From: Methanomassiliicoccales archaeon
Lineage (GTDB): Archaea > Thermoplasmatota > Thermoplasmata > Methanomassiliicoccales > UBA472
Length of the DNA stretch: 64,000 nt
Assembly (NCBI GenBank): GCA_038740345.1
Contig: JAVYMA010000004.1
Span: forward strand, 21,978-85,977
Reading direction: 5' to 3'
Position 1 is the stretch's first letter. Each line of letters starts with the position of its first letter. The notes beneath the pieces are model-generated. The model had not been told where the DNA came from. It saw nothing but the letters and a program-made list of their open reading frames with translations, and ran no database searches. The position numbers and the translations under genes were made by a program. This document shows positions 42,737 through 53,923 of this stretch, piece after piece.

Positions 42737-42854
42737 ATCGCCACTCCGCCTCGCATCCAAAGAAATGATATTAATCGCTTTGTAGCTACTAATCCATTGG
42801 TAGTTTAATTTCACGGCCTCTTGAGTCAAGAACTCCGTCTTCAGCAGCGTGCTC

Positions 42855-43775
42855 TCACATCGAGGCCTGGGCGGCATGGTTTGCGTAACAATATACGCAA
42901 CCGTTCCCGCATGTCCCATATCCGCCTATGTCCTTGCTGAGGAGACAGCCGCATTCCTTCCTCTGGCCCGGATCCTTGCATCCCCAGCTGGCGATGAACT
43001 GGTGAAGCACAGTATCGTGAGGCGCGATCCTTTTCAACCGCTCCCCCTCGACGCAGGCCGCTTTTTCAATGCCGAAGCGTTTCAAGTCCACCTCCTCGGC
43101 ACAGGCTTGTAATCTAAGTTCCCATCTCTCATTGAGGGCCGAGATGCCTTGCGCCAGCTCTATTATCTCATCTTCACTTGGCTCTCTTATTCCTCTTTTC
43201 TCCAGCTTTCTCCTCAGTCTTCTGTATCTCTGGATATCGATGAAGCTGATGGTGAGCGTATCCGTATGATGATGCAGCATTTCTCCCACCTTCGCCACCC
43301 TTTGCAGCAAAGAATCCGCATCCAGCTCCTCGCTGAGCAGGAGAGGGTCGAAGCGCCACAGGACCCTCTCCTTGCCTATCCTCTCCGAGAGCTCTTTGAA
43401 GGTGCGGGCCCTTTGCTTCAAGGGCGGCATCCTCGGCTCATAGCCTAGGCCTTCGTAGTCGTTCACCGTGTACTGGAAATAATAGGATATGCCCATCTCA
43501 TCCAGTTCTTGCAAATGCTGGAGCAGGGGGGAGGCGTCCTTGGTCCAGAACACGATCGCTCGGACCTTGCTGAAAGAGATATAATCCGTCTTGCCGTTGA
43601 AGGGGTTGCGCCACTCCACGTATCCTCTCCTCAACCTCTCCATGAACCAATCCGAATGGCAAGAGGGTATGTCCATAGCGCGGCTGGCTGAGATGATGAG
43701 CGGGGCTATCGCTTCCACTTGCCGGCCATATTCGTCGCTCAACTTTTCCCTGCTCCATCGGTAGCCTCTTGCCAT
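42855..43775 (-). CDS. DUF1848-family protein (C-terminal Cys cluster; function unknown)
   Basis: 306 aa. ISASRAMDIPSCHSDWFMERLRRGYVEWRNPFN and the C-terminal CGCLLSKDIGGYGTCGNGCVYCYANH match my recollection of DUF1848. Confidence 0.7.
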   Translation of the reverse strand: MARGYRWSREKLSDEYGRQVEAIAPLIISASRAMDIPSCHSDWFMERLRRGYVEWRNPFNGKTDYISFSKVRAIVFWTKDASPLLQHLQELDEMGISYYFQYTVNDYEGLGYEPRMPPLKQRARTFKELSERIGKERVLWRFDPLLLSEELDADSLLQRVAKVGEMLHHHTDTLTISFIDIQRYRRLRRKLEKRGIREPSEDEIIELAQGISALNERWELRLQACAEEVDLKRFGIEKAACVEGERLKRIAPHDTVLHQFIASWGCKDPGQRKECGCLLSKDIGGYGTCGNGCVYCYANHAAQASM

Positions 43776-44131
43776 ATCCTCATCACGCTACCCTTGTGCC
43801 TTGTGACTGAAATCATTCGAGGCCTATCTCGATTATGACCAGAGATTCTATTCCTTATTCTTCTTTATTAAGTTACGAGCCATCATGAATCCGGTGTGTA
43901 ACCAGCAAACCCGGCATCGGCCAAAATACATTTTGATGGTAGTTGCCTCAGCGCAAATACGATCTTGAGGGCTCGAATCGAAGCGTCTCCCATCGCATTC
44001 TTCGGCATGTGGCAAAGTGTCTTTGTCATAATCGCTGCCTCCCCGCTAATCCTAGGGATAGGCGCTCCTGGACACGAGATCATAGCGATGCCGCGAGAAC
44101 CTCCCTGCCTTGGCTAAGGCGCTCATAAAAA

Positions 44132-47100
44132 ATGGAGGCCAGACAAATAAATATGGCTTTCATCGTGGGGGTATCCATGGGCGAGGAGCGCGTCCGCGTC
44201 GACGTCAACCAGATAGGGGAATACATACAGAGGGGGGCCTGTCCCAGGCGCTTCAAGCTCGACCTCAATTCTCGCGAGGAGGCGATGAAGCTCCCCTTCT
44301 TCGCCAGGACGCTCAACCCCTTGGACCCAGTATTGCAGAGGATGGGGAGGGAGCTGGAGGAGAGATGGGAGCGCTCCCTCCTCGAGGCAGGGATGATTAG
44401 GATCAACGATCTGGGCCATGCCCCTCTAAAAGACCAGATCTCTTGGGAGGAGTTCGTTGAGCTGGTGGAGCAGCATTGCCAAGAGGGAGGGCAGCAGTTC
44501 GGGAGGGAGGTGGCCATCACCTGCCAGAAGGGACGCTTCGAAGTACATGGGAGAATGGACTTCGTGATAGTGCTGTGGAGAGATGGACGACCGTACCTAC
44601 GTATCGTGGAGTGCAAGGCCAGCAGGAAGGACAAGACCTATCATCGCCTGCAGCTGGCGCTCTACCTGCTCATGGTGCGCTCCCTCCTGGAGAGGCGCCC
44701 CCTCCTTGTGGCAGGCAAGGAATTGACTTGCGATAGCGTAGAGGGCGTGGTGGCTAGGATGAGAGAGGCGGGAGGAGGGGTGGTGGAGGACAGGATAATG
44801 GACCTGGAGCCTTTGGACCTCTCCACAGAGATGGAGGATGCGCGCCGCCTTCTCAGCGACGGAGGCATTTTAGAACACATATCAAGCAGCGAGCTGGAAG
44901 AGCTCAGCTATCAGATCAATGCCAAGTGCGATAGCTGCGTGTTCAACGTCTGCTGCCTGCCGGAGAGCGCCAGGAGGAGGTCCATAGAGCTTCTAGGCCT
45001 GGACGTGTCCGTGACGAGCACCTTAAGGGAGAAAGGCATCCGGACCTTGGACGAGCTGGCAGCGCTGAAAGTGGACTCCCCCTTGGCCCATGAGATGCGC
45101 AGGACCCCGGGGTTCTCGCAAAACCTGGAGAACCTCATAGCTCGTGCCAGGGCCCGCCTCTCCACCCTTCCAGGCTCCAAAGAGAGAGCCTTCCAAGTGC
45201 AGAAGTTCCCTCATGCCTCGGAAGGTCAGCTCCCCCCTCATGACATAGAAGGGCGAAGGCTGGTCCGGGTTTACGTGGCCGTGGAATACGACTATATCGA
45301 GGACAGGATAGTGGCCTTGGCTGCACATGTGACCTCCAGCTGCTGGAACATATGCACACCCTTCCGCAGGAGAGCTGATGGCGGATGGGCTCCGCATCCT
45401 AAGGCCATGGAATCACCTCCTCGCACGCAGCAGTCAATGGGAGGGCAGGAGGAGAGGGAGGTTCAGGGTGAGGATGTCATCCGTCTGAAAGAGAAGCCCT
45501 GGTCAGGCAAAAGGGAGGAGGACGAAAGGGCGGAGCGGGAGCTGATGGAGCGCTTCCTCAGCGAGCTTATGATCTCCATATCAAGGGTGGCCGAAACGGA
45601 CAAGGCACCCGTCCATTTTTACTTCTGGTCCCGCTCGGACTTCGATGCCCTCCTAGGTGGATGCGCTCGATGCGGCTCGGACTTGCTCGATTCCCTCACG
45701 CATCTTCTCGGCTGCCGGGAACCGCTAGAGCAGCTGATATATTCATGCTTGGAGGAAGAGGTCCATTCCCGATACGGCACGGGATGGACCGGGAGAGGGC
45801 TGGTGGTGGCCACCTCGGTCAAGTGGTTCGGGCAGGCATATCATTGGACCAGGGAGGTGGAGGGTCGCAGGATCCGGTTGGACGACCTCTTCCGCCAGGA
45901 CCTGTTCGATTTCCGCGGCAGGCTGCGCGTCAGGCCTGATGGCGAATGGGCCAGGGAGGGCGAGCCCTTCGAGGAGCCAGAGTTCGAGATCCGCTCCCGC
46001 TTCCATGACGGTTTGCCAATCCCATATTGGCACGCAGTGTGGGGAACCTTGCCGCCAATAGGACCGGAAATGCGCCGGAATCATAGGGAGGCTCTAGAGG
46101 GCTATTCCCGTGTAAACTCCCCCAAGCTGATCCAAGAATACCTGAGGGCCAGGGTCCACGCCATGCGCTGGCTGGAGGAGAGGATAATTCCCAAGAACAG
46201 GAAGCTGAGGAAGGCCTTTTTGGATTTGAGGAACCTTTCCCGCTTCCGATTGGCAGAGCCTAATAGCATACGCGCCGCCGTGGACTTCCTGCGCCTCGAC
46301 CATCACGTGAGATTGAGCGATTGGCTGGTAAGATGCATGCAGCCAGTGCGAGACAGGGTGGCGAAGGGGGAGACGGTCCCGATAGCCAAAGGCACGATCA
46401 TGGAGGACGGCTCGGACGTCTACATCGAGGCCAAGCTCGACCTGGAGAGGTTCGGCGAGGATGGCGAGGGGTTCTGGGAGAAAAGCTTGATAGAGCAAGA
46501 GTCCTGGGTGCGCCTGACTATATACGATGGTGATGCTTCGAAGGGGCAGTCGCCGCACCAGCTTTTCTCTGAAGGATGCACCTGTAAGGTACAGGGAGTG
46601 GATGCGCGAGAGGGGAAGATCTTCCTCAAGGCCATGCGCTTCGAGCCTGACAGATATCGCCTCTTTAGCAAGATCCCTCGGGATGGTTTCGAGTTCGCTG
46701 TGCTGGACGAGAGCATCTCCGACATGGTGGCCACCAGGGTGGAGGGAAGGTTGTTGAACGAGGCATCCTCTTCTCCTTCTGTCGCGCTGTCATGGTTCGA
46801 TATCCTCAGGCCGTCCGTCCCCCCTCTCCCTTGTCCTCCAGAGGAGGAACTGGAAAAGGATAGAAGAGTGCTTGAGGGCATGATTTTCGAGGGCAAGAGA
46901 TTGGGGAAGGACCAGATAGAGGCCATTATGGAAGGTTTGGTCACGCGTGTGCACTTGCTGCTGGGCCCGCCAGGCACGGGCAAGACCACCACTTTGGCCG
47001 CCGCTACCCTGCTGAGGGCCTCGAAGCTGCCGCCAGGAGAGGTGCTGGCCTTCGCGGCCAGCACGCATGCGGCAGTCGACAGGTTGATGGAGGAGCTGAA

Positions 47101-48925
47101 TAGGCTGCTGCCTTCCTTCCTCGAGGTGTACCAGCGCGCGCACGGCGTTAGGCCTGACTTGGAGATATTGGATTGGGACGAGGCCAAATCAGCGAGAGCC
47201 TCCGCTTCCAGGTTGAACGAGCTGCGCCGGGTCAGGAAAATCATCTTGGGAGGCACGACCAATGAGGTGCTCAAGCTCTGCGGCTATATGTGCCAGCTCC
47301 CCCCCTTCAACTCCAGGGGAGAGGGCTTCACGGTGCGCAGCCTGGTAGTGGATGAGGCCAGCATGATGGTGATGCCGCACTTCCTCGCTTTGGCATCGAT
47401 CCTCAGCGCGGAGGGCTGCGCGATGCTCGCCGGCGACCACAATCAATTGTCCCCCATACTATCCCATCAATGGGAGGAGGAGGACCGCCCATACATCCAA
47501 CTATATCAGCCATACACCAGCGCCTACGACGCCGTGGCCTCTTTGTCCAGGGCAAGGGGCATAGAGCCTTCGATGATAAGACGCTCAGCCCTAGTGCTCA
47601 CCTTTCGGCTGCCATATGAGATAAGGACGCTAATTGATGATATCTATCGCAGGGACGGCGTGGAGCTGGAGGGCGCGAAGGCGATTGAGAGCAGGAGGAT
47701 CGAGAGGGATGATGACGTATTCGGCCTGCTATGGCGGCAGGGAGGCATCTTCCTCATCCTCCACTCGGAGAGTGGCTCGAAGAAGCTCAACAGGTTCGAG
47801 GCCTCTATTATCGAGGAATTGGTCAGAAGAGGTACCAACAGGCCTCCTGGGTCCTTGGCGGTGATGACACCGCATCGGGCTCAGCGCACCCTGCTGCAGT
47901 CCGTCCTGCGGCCTTATCTGACAGAGGGGGATGTGATAGACACGGTGGAGAGGTTGCAGGGGGGAGAGAGGCCTACGGTCATCGTGTCGGGAACGCAAAG
48001 CGATCCCACGGCCATAAGCAACAGCGCGGACTTCATCCTCTACCTCAACCGCACCAATGTCATCTTCTCCCGGGCCAGGGAGAGGCTGATAGTGGTATGC
48101 GCCCGCACGCTGTTGGACAGCGTGCCGGCGGACAAGGAGATGTATGAGAACGCCATGCTGTGGAAGAAGTTGAGAGCGCTCTGCAGCCGAAGACTCCTGT
48201 GGTTCCGATATCGAGGCCACGAGATGGAGGTGCTGCTGCCCGACCTGGATAACATAGAGCTAGTTGGTGCTAATCCCGAATGCGATTCATACCTCCCTAG
48301 CTTCGAACCTAAACCCACCATCACAATGCTGAATCCTGTTAATACTGGGCAAGGGCTTTTAGCCTTGGAGGGCAACACCGAACAAGTCGCCTTAGCAAAC
48401 GCGCCTGAAGCTCTTAGCGAGAAGACCTGTGTAGAAAAGGTCGAAAGGCGCAGGGCGCGCTTCGGTCCCGGACCGCCTCCTATCCCTCGCATAGTGGTGG
48501 ATGGCAGCAACCTCGCTCGCTACGCGGGATATCAGAGCTCGGCCAGCGCCAGGAACCTGATCAAGGCCTATGAGGACCTGATCTCAGAATTCGGCTTCAG
48601 GAGCGTGCATGTGGTGGTGGGCGCGGGCCTGTGGAGGTCCATGCCTAGGGAGGAGTGGGAGCAGATGACCAAGTATTTCCATGAGGAGGCATCGAAGAGA
48701 GGCCGCTCCCCCATACTCCTCCAGGCGCCAGCGGGTGTGAATGATGATGTGTTCATAATAGGATTGGCGCTGAATGACGACTGCTTGATACTGAGTAATG
48801 ACCTCTTCCGCGATCATATACAGAGGCATCCGGAATGGGAGGTGGATATCAACATGAGGTTGGTCAAGTACATGTTCGTGGAGGACAAGCTCAGGATCGA
48901 GGAGTGGCCAGATTATCAAATATGA
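44132..48925 (+). CDS. 1,597-aa multidomain nuclease-helicase-RNase fusion (Cas4-like Fe-S PD-(D/E)xK nuclease, HhH, RNase-H-like region, SF1 Upf1/Dna2-like helicase, Zc3h12a-type NYN RNase)
   Basis: A single uninterrupted ORF at host-like GC; the domain motifs are itemised in the next three features. The start could be 44132, 44153 or 44177. Confidence 0.85.
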   Translation: MEARQINMAFIVGVSMGEERVRVDVNQIGEYIQRGACPRRFKLDLNSREEAMKLPFFARTLNPLDPVLQRMGRELEERWERSLLEAGMIRINDLGHAPLKDQISWEEFVELVEQHCQEGGQQFGREVAITCQKGRFEVHGRMDFVIVLWRDGRPYLRIVECKASRKDKTYHRLQLALYLLMVRSLLERRPLLVAGKELTCDSVEGVVARMREAGGGVVEDRIMDLEPLDLSTEMEDARRLLSDGGILEHISSSELEELSYQINAKCDSCVFNVCCLPESARRRSIELLGLDVSVTSTLREKGIRTLDELAALKVDSPLAHEMRRTPGFSQNLENLIARARARLSTLPGSKERAFQVQKFPHASEGQLPPHDIEGRRLVRVYVAVEYDYIEDRIVALAAHVTSSCWNICTPFRRRADGGWAPHPKAMESPPRTQQSMGGQEEREVQGEDVIRLKEKPWSGKREEDERAERELMERFLSELMISISRVAETDKAPVHFYFWSRSDFDALLGGCARCGSDLLDSLTHLLGCREPLEQLIYSCLEEEVHSRYGTGWTGRGLVVATSVKWFGQAYHWTREVEGRRIRLDDLFRQDLFDFRGRLRVRPDGEWAREGEPFEEPEFEIRSRFHDGLPIPYWHAVWGTLPPIGPEMRRNHREALEGYSRVNSPKLIQEYLRARVHAMRWLEERIIPKNRKLRKAFLDLRNLSRFRLAEPNSIRAAVDFLRLDHHVRLSDWLVRCMQPVRDRVAKGETVPIAKGTIMEDGSDVYIEAKLDLERFGEDGEGFWEKSLIEQESWVRLTIYDGDASKGQSPHQLFSEGCTCKVQGVDAREGKIFLKAMRFEPDRYRLFSKIPRDGFEFAVLDESISDMVATRVEGRLLNEASSSPSVALSWFDILRPSVPPLPCPPEEELEKDRRVLEGMIFEGKRLGKDQIEAIMEGLVTRVHLLLGPPGTGKTTTLAAATLLRASKLPPGEVLAFAASTHAAVDRLMEELNRLLPSFLEVYQRAHGVRPDLEILDWDEAKSARASASRLNELRRVRKIILGGTTNEVLKLCGYMCQLPPFNSRGEGFTVRSLVVDEASMMVMPHFLALASILSAEGCAMLAGDHNQLSPILSHQWEEEDRPYIQLYQPYTSAYDAVASLSRARGIEPSMIRRSALVLTFRLPYEIRTLIDDIYRRDGVELEGAKAIESRRIERDDDVFGLLWRQGGIFLILHSESGSKKLNRFEASIIEELVRRGTNRPPGSLAVMTPHRAQRTLLQSVLRPYLTEGDVIDTVERLQGGERPTVIVSGTQSDPTAISNSADFILYLNRTNVIFSRARERLIVVCARTLLDSVPADKEMYENAMLWKKLRALCSRRLLWFRYRGHEMEVLLPDLDNIELVGANPECDSYLPSFEPKPTITMLNPVNTGQGLLALEGNTEQVALANAPEALSEKTCVEKVERRRARFGPGPPPIPRIVVDGSNLARYAGYQSSASARNLIKAYEDLISEFGFRSVHVVVGAGLWRSMPREEWEQMTKYFHEEASKRGRSPILLQAPAGVNDDVFIIGLALNDDCLILSNDLFRDHIQRHPEWEVDINMRLVKYMFVEDKLRIEEWPDYQI
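44177..44960 (+). other. Domain: Cas4/RecB-like PD-(D/E)xK nuclease with 4-Cys Fe-S cluster motif
   Basis: N-terminal Cys (GACPRRF, TGT at 44240), catalytic-type D (MDFVIV, GAC at 44558), E-x-K (IVECKAS, 44609-44617), QxxxY-like HRLQLALY, and C-x2-C-x5-C (CDSCVFNVCC, 44927-44956). This is the Cas4/AddB/Dna2 arrangement. Confidence 0.75.
46900..48110 (+). other. Domain: superfamily-1 (Upf1/Dna2-like, AAA_11/AAA_12) helicase core
   Basis: Walker A LLLGPPGTGKTT (46964-46987), motif II VVDEASMM (47345-47368), GDHNQLSPI, TVERLQGGERPTVIV and FSRARERLIVV. Confidence 0.8.
48485..48922 (+). other. Domain: Zc3h12a/Regnase-type NYN ribonuclease
   Basis: PRIVVDGSNLA...VNDDVFIIGLALNDDCLILSNDLFRDH...MRLVKYMFVEDKL aligns by eye with the mammalian Regnase-1 NYN core recalled from memory (RPVVIDGSNVA...[26 protein letters not shown]...RLLMYSFVNDKF). 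All the acidic catalytic positions are present. Confidence 0.75.
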
Positions 48926-49377
48926 TTATTTAAAATTAATAAATAAATAAAGTTTCAGAAGTTCGCTTGAAGAACACTCTTTTTATAACAAAATTTAAAT
49001 GTATTCGATTGGTCACGAATATATATTATTTTCATTTATAAATAACGTCCTTCTTATTTATAAGTCACAATCGAAATAAAAAAAAAGGATATGGTAATGA
49101 AAAAGTCTTTCTTTCATCCTTTTTCAGCATTCCCATCTTTTAAGTAATTTTGGGTTTTATTATGATTATTATTATAGAAGATTAATTAGAAAGAATCTAA
49201 TATTGGATTTATTCTCAAAAGTATTGATATTTTAGGGTAAAGAGAGATGGAAAATTGAAAAGATTTCATTAATTTTTTTATATTATAAAATTTGCAATTA
49301 GAAAACTTTACCAATTTATATTTCAAAATCCTATGCGAAAAGCTTAGAATAGAAAATAATTATTAGACACATCCAAA

Positions 49378-51267
49378 ATGAGACTTTATTCAGGAAGCTC
49401 TAATCAGTTCGTAGAAGATACAATACAAAATCAAATAGCAGAAAAAATGAAAAATAGTTATTTTAACTATTTTCGTTATTTTCCAACACCAAGTGAGATT
49501 AGTGCATGGAGAAATTCATTAAGGGCCATGTCTCTGGTTATTTTATCTTCAAAATTAGATGACCATGGAGTAATCCTAGAATATCAATTACCTTTGACAT
49601 CGAAAAGGTTAGATTTTTTAATATGTGGGCTTGATTCTGATTCAAAACCAAATGCTGTGATTGTAGAATTGAAGCAATGGGAAAAATGTGAGATATCTGA
49701 TGGAGAAAATGAAGTCCTTACATTCGTCGGTGGAAATAAAAGAGAGGTACTGCATCCATCAGCGCAAGTAGGTCAATATTCATTATACCTTCAAGATACC
49801 CATACTGCATTTTATGAAAATCCAACTCCGATAAATCTGAGCGCCTGTTCTTACCTTCATAATTACAGGGCAATTTCAAATGATCCTTTATTTAATAAAA
49901 AATTTTGCAATTTATTGGAAAAATATCCAATATTCACTGAAGATGATGTAAACAAATTAAAGGAATACTTAATTCCAAGATTAGAAAAAGGAGAAGGTTT
50001 GCCTGTTCTCGCTAGGATAGAAAATAGTAAATATCGTCCAAATAAAAAATTAATGGATCATGTTGGCAATCTAATCAAAGGCAAGCCAGAATATATATTG
50101 TTAGATGAACAAAAAATTGTATATGATAAAGTTCTTGCAGTCGCGAAAGAGGGTTTTCATCAATCGAGAAAAATTGTAATTATTGTAAAGGGAGGTCCTG
50201 GTACTGGAAAATCTGTTATTGCAATTAATCTGATGGCAGATTTGTTATTAAAAGGCTATAATGCACACTATGCAACAGGATCCAGAGCTTTTACAGAGAC
50301 TTTAAGGAAAATTATAGGAAAAAGAGGAAGTGTTCAATTCAGATTTTTCAATAGCTATACACAATCGGAACCGAACTCAGTAGATATTCTAATCTGCGAC
50401 GAAGCGCATCGGATAAGGAAAACAAGCAATAATTGGAGAACGCCAACATATAATAAGAGCAATATTCCGCAAATTGATGAATTATTGACAGTCGCAAAAG
50501 TTGTTGTGTTTTTTATTGATGATGCACAGGTTGTTCGACCAGATGAAGTTGGTTCCGTGGATTACATTAAAAATGCAGCCAATCGATTTAATTGTCAAAT
50601 TTTTGAATATGAACTAGAAGCTCAATTTCGTTGTGCTGGGTCAGATGCATTTGTTAATTGGGTAAACAATACTCTAGCAATAAAAAGAACTGCGAATGTT
50701 ATCTGGGAAGGGGATGAAGGATTTGACTTTAGAATCGTTGAATCACCTCAAAAGCTAGAAACTATGATTAGGGAGAAGGTATCCCAAGGTTACTCAGGAA
50801 GGATAGTTGCTGGATTTTGTTGGCCCTGGTCTTATCCGAAAGAGGATGGAACACTGGTTGACGATGTTAAGATAGGTGATTATTGCCGTCCTTGGGATGC
50901 TAGACCTGACGCAAAGAAATTATCTAAGGATATCCCCCCTGCTTCTTTATGGGCATACGATCCCAATGGGATAAATCAGATTGGTTGCGTATATACAGCC
51001 CAGGGGTTTGAATTCGATTATATAGGGGTTATTTTTGGATTAGATTTGAGATATGATTTCTCGGAGCAGAGATGGAAAGGCTACAGAGAATTTTCTTGTG
51101 ACAATGTTGTTAAACGTTCAAAAGAGAAATTCACTGATCTTGTAAAAAATACGTATAGGGTTTTATTAACACGTGGTCTAAAAGGATGCTATATATATTT
51201 TATGGATAAGCAAACAGAAAACTTTTTCAAATCAAGAATAGAAATTGAAAAGGTAGTTAACTCTTGA
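49378..51267 (+). CDS. DUF2075-family (Schlafen group-3 helicase-like) ATPase with N-terminal D...ExK nuclease-like motif
   Basis: 629 aa. RLDFLICG (D at 49612) and VIVELKQW (E-x-K at 49666-49674). Walker A GGPGTGKS (50191-50214), ICDEAHR (50392-50412), then QFRCAGS...YTAQGFEFDYIGVIFG...YRVLLTRGLKGCYIYF, typical of DUF2075. Confidence 0.8.
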   Translation: MRLYSGSSNQFVEDTIQNQIAEKMKNSYFNYFRYFPTPSEISAWRNSLRAMSLVILSSKLDDHGVILEYQLPLTSKRLDFLICGLDSDSKPNAVIVELKQWEKCEISDGENEVLTFVGGNKREVLHPSAQVGQYSLYLQDTHTAFYENPTPINLSACSYLHNYRAISNDPLFNKKFCNLLEKYPIFTEDDVNKLKEYLIPRLEKGEGLPVLARIENSKYRPNKKLMDHVGNLIKGKPEYILLDEQKIVYDKVLAVAKEGFHQSRKIVIIVKGGPGTGKSVIAINLMADLLLKGYNAHYATGSRAFTETLRKIIGKRGSVQFRFFNSYTQSEPNSVDILICDEAHRIRKTSNNWRTPTYNKSNIPQIDELLTVAKVVVFFIDDAQVVRPDEVGSVDYIKNAANRFNCQIFEYELEAQFRCAGSDAFVNWVNNTLAIKRTANVIWEGDEGFDFRIVESPQKLETMIREKVSQGYSGRIVAGFCWPWSYPKEDGTLVDDVKIGDYCRPWDARPDAKKLSKDIPPASLWAYDPNGINQIGCVYTAQGFEFDYIGVIFGLDLRYDFSEQRWKGYREFSCDNVVKRSKEKFTDLVKNTYRVLLTRGLKGCYIYFMDKQTENFFKSRIEIEKVVNS

Positions 51268-51637
51268 GATTATTTTTAAATTCATTATATTTTTTATTAC
51301 TACCTTTCGCTAATTGTATTGGATATCTTTCATCATTTAGCTTCAATTTCTTTTCTAGTTCATCGGATAAATCAAAATTATATCTATCCGAAAAACGTAA
51401 CAGAAAATAGAGCACATCTCCCAATTCCTCTCCCATTTTTTTTCGATAATAGCTGTTAGTCATCATATCCATAATTTCATTCTCTTGTTTAAATCTAAAA
51501 ATTTCTAAAAATTCAGATGCTTCTGTTATTATCCCTATTGCTAAATCTTTAGGATTGTGAAATTCATCCCAACCTCTATCATCACAAAATTTTGCTACCT
51601 TTTTCTTAGCTGTCTCAAATGTTGTCTCTGAGTCCAT
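51257..51637 (-). CDS. MazG/DCTPP1-like all-alpha nucleoside-triphosphate pyrophosphohydrolase
   Basis: About 126 aa. FCDDRGWDEFHNPKDLAIGIITEASEFLEIFRFK...GEELGDVLYFLLRFSDRYNFDL...LNDERYP...KGSNKKY fits the MazG-type NTP-PPase pattern with its two acidic metal-binding helices. Its 3' end overlaps the DUF2075 gene by 11 nt. Confidence 0.8.
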   Translation of the reverse strand: MDSETTFETAKKKVAKFCDDRGWDEFHNPKDLAIGIITEASEFLEIFRFKQENEIMDMMTNSYYRKKMGEELGDVLYFLLRFSDRYNFDLSDELEKKLKLNDERYPIQLAKGSNKKYNEFKNNLKS

Positions 51638-51793
51638 CAAAGTGATAAATATGTTTTAGATTAAAATTTGTATCATCAAAAAGTTCTATCATCTTTTAAT
51701 TAATTGATAAATTATAACAATATTAATTAATTATTATATTATTTTTTGTTTAAATTTGCAATATTTATATTTATGCACATTAATCAGAACTAG

Positions 51794-52960: not shown

Positions 52961-53923
52961 GTGCCGCATTCAGGTGCGATGGACCCTAGAAGGCTCCTAG
53001 GCAACAACGCCTCCATGATGACCTTATCCTTCATCACCGCCCTGGCACTCGGCGGCTTCCCCTCATGGTTCCCCCTCACCAACGGCAACGTGGCTATGCT
53101 GATGCTTGTCATCATGATGTCCTTCTCCCTGACATCGCTTCGCATCAGAGGGATGAGCATCAGGTCTCATTCCAAGGCCATCCTTCGAGCCACGCTGCTG
53201 TCCTTTGTCCTCTCCTCTGGCGTCACGATAGCATTGGCGCAGCTCTTCCAAGGGGACATTAGGGCAGGCTGGGTTCTCCTGGCCGCTGTTCCCTCCGCCG
53301 TGTCCGTGGTGCCTTTCACCTTCCTCATGAAGGGCGACCTCGAGCCCACCCTGATCTCCACCGCCGCTCTTTACATCATCGCCGTGGCGCTCACCCCCCT
53401 TCTCACCCTTCTTTTCCTAGGACAGGCCGTGGATGTCTTGTTGCTCGTCTTCTATGTGGCGGTCCTCATCCTCCTCCCTCTCCTCCTCTCCATAGGGATA
53501 AAAAAGCTCGACATCCCGCCCTCGGACCGGACCGCGATAATCAATGTGGCCTTCTTCATCCTGATAGTGGCGGTAGCGGGCTCGAATCGTCACGTCTTCT
53601 TCGGGGAGCCGCTACTGCTGCTTTCCTTGCTAGGAGTGGCGGTGGTGCGTATCATGGGAGTAGGGCTGGCATGGGATTGGCATTTAAGAAGGAGAGGAGC
53701 ATCTCGCGCTCAAAGGGTGCCAGAGGTCCTCTTCTCCTCTTACAAGAACACGGGGATGGCCGCCGCCTTGGCCATGAGCGTGGTGGGTCCGCAGGCGGCG
53801 GTGCCGGCAGCAGTGTGCACGGTGGTGGACATTGTTTGGCTGATATATCTCTCGAGGTTCCTCTTCTCTGACGCCAGGGTGGAGGACAAGCAGGCCCCTA
53901 TCGAGATCTCGGAAGCATCATGA
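52961..53923 (+). CDS. Membrane transporter, bile acid:Na+ symporter (BASS/SBF-like) family
   Basis: About 9-10 hydrophobic helices and a FSSYKNTGMAAALA motif. The GTG start is uncertain. Confidence 0.6.
   Translation: MPHSGAMDPRRLLGNNASMMTLSFITALALGGFPSWFPLTNGNVAMLMLVIMMSFSLTSLRIRGMSIRSHSKAILRATLLSFVLSSGVTIALAQLFQGDIRAGWVLLAAVPSAVSVVPFTFLMKGDLEPTLISTAALYIIAVALTPLLTLLFLGQAVDVLLLVFYVAVLILLPLLLSIGIKKLDIPPSDRTAIINVAFFILIVAVAGSNRHVFFGEPLLLLSLLGVAVVRIMGVGLAWDWHLRRRGASRAQRVPEVLFSSYKNTGMAAALAMSVVGPQAAVPAAVCTVVDIVWLIYLSRFLFSDARVEDKQAPIEISEAS

Follow-up and report, generated by a model that had tools for sequence, protein, structure and literature searches.

An archaeal DUF2075 nuclease-helicase gene and its DCTPP1-type pyrophosphohydrolase neighbour as a candidate minimal defence-island module

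Antiviral single genes in which an N-terminal nuclease precedes a DUF2075 domain have been described as Nhi (S. epidermidis SERP2475; Bari et al. 2022) and Nhi-like (Millman et al. 2022). Phages escape Nhi-like through loss of a DNA methylase, which its authors read as methylation sensitising the phage. Related genes have been noted beside type IV restriction enzymes: the McaZI enzyme, dependent on 5-methylcytosine (5mC) or 5-hydroxymethylcytosine (5hmC), is encoded beside a DUF2075 NTPase, the His-Me finger 'Group 23' adjoins MazG genes, and SauUSI homologues adjoin MutT. Enzymes acting on deoxynucleoside triphosphates (dNTPs) also serve in nucleotide-depletion defences, namely dCTP deaminase, dGTPase and PUA-Cal-HAD, and the literature includes the prediction of a MazG-like PUA-Cal-HAD variant. 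Here, these systems are compared with a pair of adjacent genes in a 64,000-nt stretch of DNA from a Methanomassiliicoccales archaeon (assembly GCA_038740345.1, contig JAVYMA010000004.1, positions 21,978 to 85,977), which is called the window throughout. One gene encodes a 629-aa protein of the DUF2075 family and the other a 126-aa MazG-like protein of the DCTPP1 type.

With Nhi and Nhi-like, the 629-aa protein shares the domain order, a PD-(D/E)xK-type nuclease followed by a DUF2075 helicase of superfamily 1B (SF1B), and the escape of phages by methylase loss fits the type-IV-rich neighbourhoods of DUF2075 loci. Both systems were described as single-gene, with no pyrophosphatase partner mentioned. 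Whereas the type IV adjacencies of McaZI, SauUSI and Group 23 were noted singly, DUF2075 loci combine HNH_2, SRA-HNH, MrcB_N or DUF3427 with both a MazG-like gene and DUF2075. The depletion defences likewise place a dNTP-acting enzyme in a defence context, but the 126-aa enzyme is not homologous to their effectors and has no sensor or regulatory domain. In the literature searched, no paper was found that links DUF2075 with a MazG-like protein or proposes a role for the pyrophosphohydrolase, and PADLOC v2 has no model for a pair of DUF2075 and DCTPP1-type genes. The 'MazG' system of DefensePredictor is a different one, composed of a MazG-C kinase and aGPT-Pplase. The original prediction knew of no named defence system for the pair; this stands for the pair as such, which PADLOC does not call, but not for its DUF2075 half, for which Nhi and Nhi-like are precedents. 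What appears to be new is the conserved pairing of DUF2075 with a DCTPP1-type enzyme, and the DUF2075 half is predicted to add an archaeal protein to the Nhi-like kind. With a probability of about 0.5, the window pair is read as a minimal version, obtained by horizontal transfer, of a defence-island module widespread in bacteria and archaea.

The two open reading frames (ORFs) are those first described, convergent and sharing 11 nt at their 3' ends (Table 1). The mechanically delimited ORF of the MazG-like gene begins one codon earlier, with TTG at 51640. Identical proteins are known from a Methanomassiliicoccales metagenome-assembled genome (MAG), where the counterpart of the 629-aa protein (100% identity) is annotated as DUF2075.

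Table 1. Coordinates of the gene pair, its flanking non-coding DNA and the insertion that carries it (positions of the window)
Feature	Position	Strand	Remarks
DUF2075-family nuclease-helicase gene, Nhi-like	49378..51267	+	629 aa, stop codon counted in; PF09848
N-terminal domain, predicted PD-(D/E)xK nuclease	49378..50163	+	aa 1-262; conserved residues, modelled topology
Key residues of the N-terminal domain	E68 49579-49581; D79 49612-49614; E97-L-K99 49666-49674; Q130/Y134 49765-49779	+	
SF1B-type helicase/ATPase core	50173..51207	+	aa 266-610; Walker A GGPGTGKS 50191-50214; Walker B DEAH within 50392-50412
MazG-like gene, DCTPP1/RS21-C6-type all-alpha NTP pyrophosphohydrolase	51257..51637	-	126 aa counted from ATG; PF12643
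Overlap of the two convergent 3' ends	51257..51267	.	11 nt
AT-rich non-coding leader upstream of the DUF2075 gene	48926..49377	+	452 nt, GC 0.22
AT-rich spacer, MazG-like start to PGI/PMI start	51638..51793	-	GC 0.15
Low-GC island	48926..51793	.	2868 nt, GC 0.308; only these two genes aboard
Variable insertion between conserved DHBP-synthase and PGI/PMI genes	42737..51793	.	~9 kb
DUF1848 gene within the insertion	42855-43775	-	PF08902 E 6e-90; PADLOC RTasDUF1848 E 1.6e-41
PD-(D/E)xK + SF1 helicase + NYN gene within the insertion	44132-48925	+	1597 aa

The pairing was surveyed in DUF2075 loci, 12 from species genomes, 80 from metagenomes and 7 from viral contigs, which were scanned with hidden Markov models (HMMs) built from two alignments (A1 and A2). 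A MazG-like gene directly adjoins the DUF2075 gene in 37 of the 64 loci (58%) that are fully flanked, having 450 nt or more of DNA to each side. The partner lies upstream on the same strand in 31 loci (gap 0-74 nt, most 0-20), upstream and divergent in four, downstream on the same strand in one, and downstream and convergent in one; called genes are at most 2 nt apart or overlap by up to 4 nt. Two archaeal MAGs (L003 and L006) share the convergent layout of the window and hold its closest DUF2075 relatives, at 69-74% identity. The rest of the flanking DNA yielded a single further MazG-like ORF, 1.3 kb off (L086). Hosts of paired loci include Omnitrophota, Planctomycetia, Syntrophales, Bathyarchaeia, Micrarchaeota, Bacillota and Halobacteria, and the contexts are independent because flanking genes are mostly unrelated between loci. 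The suspected co-localisation of the two families is therefore no product of chance, given its frequency, the four arrangements and the many phyla, and it is very probable that DUF2075 and the MazG-like protein constitute a real functional module.

Sampling from the other side gave a compatible picture: four of seven MazG homologues lie beside a DUF2075 gene (P0133, P0145, P0198 and P0209), another (P0150) is followed immediately by an HNH_2 nuclease with no DUF2075, and a sixth (P0188) sits between an MrcB_N-NucS_C nuclease and McrBC. Plasmids carry the combination as well. On a Priestia aryabhattai plasmid (NZ_CP083270), an MrcB_N-nuclease, a 'nucleotide pyrophosphohydrolase' and DUF2075 form an operon amid type I restriction-modification (RM) genes and MutT, and on a plasmid of Halalkalicoccus jeotgali B3 (NC_014298) a pyrophosphohydrolase gene precedes DUF2075. 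A three-gene operon of the Bacillus thuringiensis plasmid NZ_ON470186 (L125, 3323-6914) consists of a PRA-PH NTP pyrophosphatase (PF01503), whose all-alpha family differs from that of the window enzyme, an HNH_4 endonuclease and DUF2075; this non-orthologous replacement indicates that the NTP pyrophosphatase activity itself is what is needed.

Several further records concern mobile or viral DNA. Among plasmid records holding a DUF2075 relative, 51 of 79 come from Bacillus, and the one such locus inspected is that of the B. thuringiensis plasmid. The 22-kb record of Microcystis phage Mwe-JY31 (PP438423; L127), deposited as a cyanophage, contains a MazG-like gene and DUF2075 with a gene for a tetratricopeptide-repeat (TPR) protein upstream, and an IMG/VR contig binned as a giant-virus MAG (GVMAG-S-1041346-124; L105/L109) contains a MazG-like - DUF2075 pair. 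The module may thus be carried by viruses; alternatively, cellular or mobile DNA was misassigned in these records. The Hymenobacter canadensis plasmid NZ_CP114769 (L113, 3904-7890) has two tandem DUF2075 paralogues and no annotated MazG-like gene; genes for a site-specific DNA methyltransferase and a DUF4747 protein precede the paralogues.

The gene neighbourhoods were surveyed by clustering 286 flanking genes, followed by an HMM census over 101 loci. HNH_2 proteins occur in 26 loci, SRA-HNH proteins, which have the architecture of a 5mC-reader nuclease, in 8, HNH-HIT fusions in 9, PLD-helicase-DUF3427 proteins (PADLOC type IV mREase, E 1e-259) in 4, and Cas1 in 3. An HNH or type-IV-like neighbour is present in at least 37 of the 101 loci, many of which are on short contigs. 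Type I RM and McrBC genes also occur in the neighbourhoods, and toxin-antitoxin genes near some loci. An enrichment of defence genes had been named as a test of the antiviral idea, and the neighbourhoods are defence-like, with restriction enzymes, type IV mREase, Cas1 and McrBC. The window pair itself lies in a variable insertion. A role in defence is considered probable for the module.

Two neighbours recur in forms that deserve mention. The HNH domain fused to HIT, a histidine-triad nucleotide hydrolase (for example L048:4792-5796, L024:1073-1618, L026:863-1573, L035:2662-3192 and L064:7097-7498), again joins a nuclease to an enzyme acting on nucleotides and recurs beside DUF2075. In five loci (L023, L029, L032, L043 and L106), a conserved pair made up of a TPR gene and a gene of about 269 codons stands immediately upstream of MazG/DUF2075; the protein of ~269 aa has an HExxH-like motif, 'VAHECGHIL', and no Pfam match.

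The C-terminal part of the 629-aa protein belongs to PF09848 (SLFN-g3_helicase, formerly DUF2075), with an E-value of 7.6e-88 and 295.6 bits against a cut-off of 24; the match covers aa 266-610 and model positions 2-354 of 354. All motifs quoted in the original prediction are present: GGPGTGKS at 272-279, ICDEAHR at 339-345 (DEAH at 341-344), FRCAGS at 417-422, YTAQGFEFDY at 539-548 and LLTRG at 596-600, together with RLDFLI at 77-82 and VIVELKQW at 94-101 in the N-terminal domain. An AlphaFold model computed with 33 homologues in the alignment has a mean pLDDT (predicted local confidence) of 79.7, and in it the helicase core is an SF1B fold with Walker A and Walker B present. The best solved structures in Foldseek are human SLFN11 (E 4e-11), RecD2 and Dda, with E-values ranging to 5e-9, and SLFN14. 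The proposed kinship with the Schlafen helicases is borne out by the common Pfam family and by SLFN11 as the top match, but identity to the group III Schlafens SLFN11, SLFN14 and SLFN5 is only about 11% (Foldseek). Schlafens have an AlbA_2 tRNA-nuclease, whereas Pfam detects no AlbA_2 nuclease core (PF04326) in the 629-aa protein, whose N-terminal domain is a different one, PD-(D/E)xK-like.

RecB/Cas4-type enzymes carry an acidic residue on strand 2, the ExK motif on strand 3 and QxxxY on the next helix. In an alignment of the N-terminal domain with 24 homologues (24-69% identity to the window protein), W44, E68, P72, R77, D79, G84, E97, K99, Q100, W101, H126, P127, Q130, Y134 and N162 are invariant, and both structural models place helix 38-57, strands 64-70, 77-85 and 91-99, helix 127-141 and strand 153-160 under these residues. 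Such an alpha-beta-beta-beta-alpha-beta core has the topology of PD-(D/E)xK nucleases, with the acid, ExK and QxxxY arranged as in RecB/Cas4-type enzymes, and the domain is accordingly named here as a predicted nuclease. The D...ExK pair, earlier picked out as a putative motif, is more than a chance pattern, since E68, D79, E97, K99, Q130 and Y134 are invariant and sit on the modelled core. The basis of this assignment is the conserved motif, the modelled topology and published precedent, and a fold match is no part of it. Weak, non-significant Foldseek matches of the domain include the restriction enzyme EcoT38I and the Shedu nuclease, and an hhalign comparison with the Cas4-like PDDEXK_1 domain encoded next to the island gave a probability of 0.2%.

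Some DUF2075 homologues carry an additional C-terminal domain that is absent from the window protein, a LexA-like Peptidase_S24 domain of about 180 aa found on ~50 of the closest 120 homologues (examples are P0010, P0013, P0030, P0046, P0063, P0087, P0094 and P0113; columns ~630-814 of A2). It lies downstream of the DUF2075 core in loci L005, L007, L008, L013, L016, L025, L027 and L070. The extension includes 'AAAG(K/N)FG', which resembles the Ala-Gly cleavage site of LexA, and a GxSMEP serine and a TVKKY lysine as a Ser/Lys dyad. These motifs suggest self-cleavage triggered by RecA and single-stranded DNA (ssDNA) as a putative activation switch. Among fully flanked loci, 12 have the extension, and a MazG-like gene is present in 11 of these. 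The DUF2075 subfamily as a whole is unusually conserved and counts thousands of cluster representatives that are 66-77% identical to the window protein and come from Archaea and several bacterial phyla; the GC content of the gene is 0.28-0.58 and roughly tracks that of the host flanks (loci L003-L013). This conservation implies frequent recent transfer between domains and strong purifying selection.

The 126-aa protein matches PF12643 (MazG-like) with E 9.8e-11 and 42.2 bits against a cut-off of 27. The profile of its family matches mouse dCTP pyrophosphatase 1 (6sqw/2a3q) with E 2.7e-25 over 114 ungapped residues and the archaeal pyrophosphatase 4QGP with E 9.3e-23. The metal-binding ExxE...ExxD motif is intact in the window protein (E39, E42, E71 and D74) and in 58 of 58 DUF2075-linked partners, all of which likewise keep R21, W23, H27 and K97; nearly all retain N101 and an aromatic residue at positions 49 and 78. 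Conservation of the catalytic residues across linked partners indicates that enzymatic activity is under selection, and the protein is predicted from these residues to be an active DCTPP1-type dNTP pyrophosphohydrolase. It consists of the catalytic core only, without a regulatory domain, and no PADLOC model matched it or its Priestia homologue.

The residues of the DCTPP1 base pocket have a role in base recognition, and DCTPP1 favours modified over bulk canonical dCTP. The window protein shares with the mouse enzyme the positions aligned to W47, H51 and N125 and the C-terminal KGSxxKY motif, and it has F49 and F78 in place of mouse W73 and Y102, where most partners have W and Y. DCTPP1 is stated to prefer dCTP and 5-modified dCTP (PMC7162842, PMC13291643) and to stop misincorporation of methylated cytosine nucleotides (PMC13291643). 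Grouping with house-cleaning enzymes had been named as an argument against a defence role, and the protein does group with those of the DCTPP1 type; yet, in contrast to housekeeping DCTPP1 and 4QGP, its gene sits on a mobile low-GC island beside a nuclease-helicase, and relatives are empty at the site, so that it is not a vertically inherited housekeeper.

In the mechanism favoured here, the nuclease-helicase would bind DNA that enters the cell, use ATP to unwind it and then cut it. To judge from Nhi-like and from the gene neighbours, its preferred target would probably be base-modified DNA, in which cytosine is methylated or otherwise modified. The pyrophosphatase would turn dCTP-type nucleotides, most likely 5-modified dCTP, into the monophosphate, with one of two effects. 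Modified nucleotides from degraded foreign DNA could be kept from the host chromosome, so that the host would be spared by its own or neighbouring modification-dependent nucleases, or starvation could strike a virus whose DNA is made from modified dCTP. The two proteins may also interact physically. This division of labour, with the nuclease-helicase directed against modified DNA and the pyrophosphatase against modified dCTP, is offered as a tentative proposal.

A wider claim is about as tentative, namely that DCTPP1-type (or equivalent all-alpha or Nudix) dNTP pyrophosphohydrolases may be dedicated partners of modification-dependent nucleases and police the nucleotide pool in bacteria and archaea. 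Immunity that depends on modification has a safety problem: salvage could write released modified nucleotides into the host DNA and so expose the host to its nuclease. That problem could be met simply by a conserved partner with pyrophosphatase activity. If the wider claim is true, pool sanitation would be a new functional class, a safety component of modification-based self/non-self discrimination, and human DCTPP1, which keeps methylated cytosine nucleotides from DNA, might owe this role to an immune origin. The proposal would also give a likely function to thousands of unannotated gene pairs of DUF2075 and 'nucleotide pyrophosphohydrolase', extend Nhi-like defence to archaea, and tie two human families with antiviral and genome-guarding roles, the Schlafen helicases and DCTPP1, to one prokaryotic module.

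Several observations weigh against this interpretation. As regards the pairing, 27 of the 64 fully flanked loci (42%) are without a MazG-like gene, so the nuclease-helicase can stand alone, and the window genes are convergent and do not form an operon. The pairwise distances of the partners correlate weakly (r = 0.20, a value reached by 0 of 2000 permutations), which indicates that partners were swapped in evolution and not strictly co-inherited. The last of the seven sampled MazG homologues (P0220) stands alone beside thymidylate kinase, as a housekeeper would; the MazG-like family includes housekeepers, but most sampled members accompany restriction-type nucleases. As regards modified DNA, Pfam detects no modified-base reader (SRA, EVE/PUA, DUF3427 or MrcB_N) in either window protein, and reader-nuclease genes were found in related loci only, with none in the window island. 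As regards Nhi, the likeness consists of domain order and a partial PADLOC match, and the N-terminal domain is unlike any library model. Its 262 aa are unmatched in Pfam at E-values up to 5, its profile gave only spurious armadillo-repeat matches among PDB sequences, and Foldseek returned nothing with E <0.02 from PDB and BFVD, the BFVD result being empty. The PADLOC Nhi model (E 4e-12) covers aa 238-419 only, against positions 180-330 of 470; AbiO matches partially to a similar degree (~E 1e-12), and PDC-S41 (E 4.6e-19) has its best stretch at aa 538-608 against positions 556-623 of 657.

The main rival is depletion of canonical nucleotides, in which DUF2075 would sense infection, the activated MazG-like effector would hydrolyse canonical dNTPs (dCTP), and viral replication would stall. 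The original prediction had drawn this comparison; its antiviral two-gene module is supported by the adjacency and the defence context, but simple depletion of canonical dNTPs is not, as the context points to modified-base (type IV-like) restriction. Depletion would agree with the dCTP-deaminase, dGTPase and PUA-Cal-HAD defences, including the predicted MazG-like variant, with the strict conservation of the MazG-like catalytic residues, and with the tight same-strand spacing, which suggests co-expression and possibly a complex. It is harder to reconcile with a 126-aa protein that lacks a regulatory domain, with convergent and divergent arrangements in which the MazG-like gene has a presumed promoter region of its own, and with MazG-like genes that accompany HNH_2 or McrBC without DUF2075; moreover, the helicase partner has a conserved nuclease of its own, so that a separate effector is not needed. 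Depletion is on balance considered unlikely.

An SOS-induced module for DNA damage and repair would put the helicase-nuclease on damaged or stalled DNA, with the pyrophosphatase clearing damaged dNTPs. The S24 domain of so many close homologues would suit such a module, but as a switch it fits the sensing of phage-induced ssDNA equally well. DCTPP1 and MutT are classical pool sanitisers, with MutT adjoining the Priestia locus, and replication stress elicits a response from SLFN11, which is the nearest fold among solved structures. The distribution of the module is, however, patchy and marked by horizontal transfer, as exemplified by a low-GC island missing from related genomes; its neighbours are restriction enzymes, Cas1 and toxin-antitoxin genes and not repair genes, and it is found on plasmids and viral contigs. 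A primary function in repair is therefore judged improbable.

Still less probable is a toxin-antidote pair that stabilises mobile DNA, in which a nuclease-helicase toxic to the host would be neutralised by the pyrophosphatase, for example through removal of an activating nucleotide. The pair is small and mobile and lies on a low-GC island; in related loci the small gene often precedes the large one and its stop overlaps the next start, an order known from many toxin-antitoxin operons, and pairs on plasmids and toxin-antitoxin genes near some loci would be in keeping with addiction. But the nuclease-helicase occurs without the putative antidote in 42% of the loci, the pyrophosphatase also partners unrelated nucleases, and its conserved enzymatic residues point to small-molecule catalysis over neutralisation of a protein, although the two are not exclusive. 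Finally, a mere side-by-side position of a stand-alone Nhi-like gene and an unrelated house-cleaning gene, to which the convergent orientation in the window, the many loci with DUF2075 alone and the solitary MazG homologue beside thymidylate kinase might point, is very improbable and close to refuted by the counts, as the adjacency spans many phyla and four arrangements, essentially no MazG-like ORFs lie elsewhere in the flanks, the convergent layout recurs in L003 and L006, and a non-orthologous NTP pyrophosphatase takes the same slot on Bacillus plasmids.

The acquisition of the pair can be followed in its surroundings. The low-GC island that had been claimed is real by computed GC content: the 31% of the island stands against ~58% for the host Methanomassiliicoccales genome, 0.584 for the 1597-aa gene on its left and 0.585 for the housekeeping flank on its right. 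Related Methanomassiliicoccales (L122-L124) have the gene order FtsZ ... DHBP synthase, PGI/PMI, SHMT, TtuA, RFC, with only ~100-160 nt between DHBP synthase and PGI, and the pair is absent at this site there. The window is collinear with these relatives on both sides but has ~9.06 kb extra. The pair was thus acquired recently by horizontal transfer in this genome, and the insertion site is a variable hotspot that has received two or more acquisitions differing in age or origin. The borders of the island have no tRNA nearby and no integrase was found there; candidate direct or inverted repeats in its flanks were AT-rich chance matches, none of them convincing, no terminators were found and promoter-like sites are at chance level. 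None of the window's flanking proteins is present in any other DUF2075 locus, which speaks against a shared insertion site. The leader upstream of the DUF2075 gene, in which Rfam gave only sub-threshold noise, ORFs do not exceed 46 aa and no repeat of note was seen, is presumably the promoter region of that gene, as the spacer before PGI/PMI presumably is for the MazG-like gene.

The remaining genes of the ~9-kb insertion have host-like GC and are likewise missing from the relatives. The 1597-aa protein combines a Cas4-like PD-(D/E)xK domain (PDDEXK_1), an SF1 helicase (AAA_11/AAA_12) and a C-terminal NYN RNase, and gave partial matches to MkoA, DpdJ and PLuB-helicase. Its gene adjoins that for DUF1848, a domain that PADLOC ties to reverse-transcriptase defence systems, and the two genes may be a separate defence system. 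Beyond PGI/PMI, a gene for an SBF-like membrane protein (bile-acid/sodium symporter family; 52961-53923, + strand) lies between PGI/PMI and SHMT, which are directly adjacent in L122-L124, and marks a second small insertion site.

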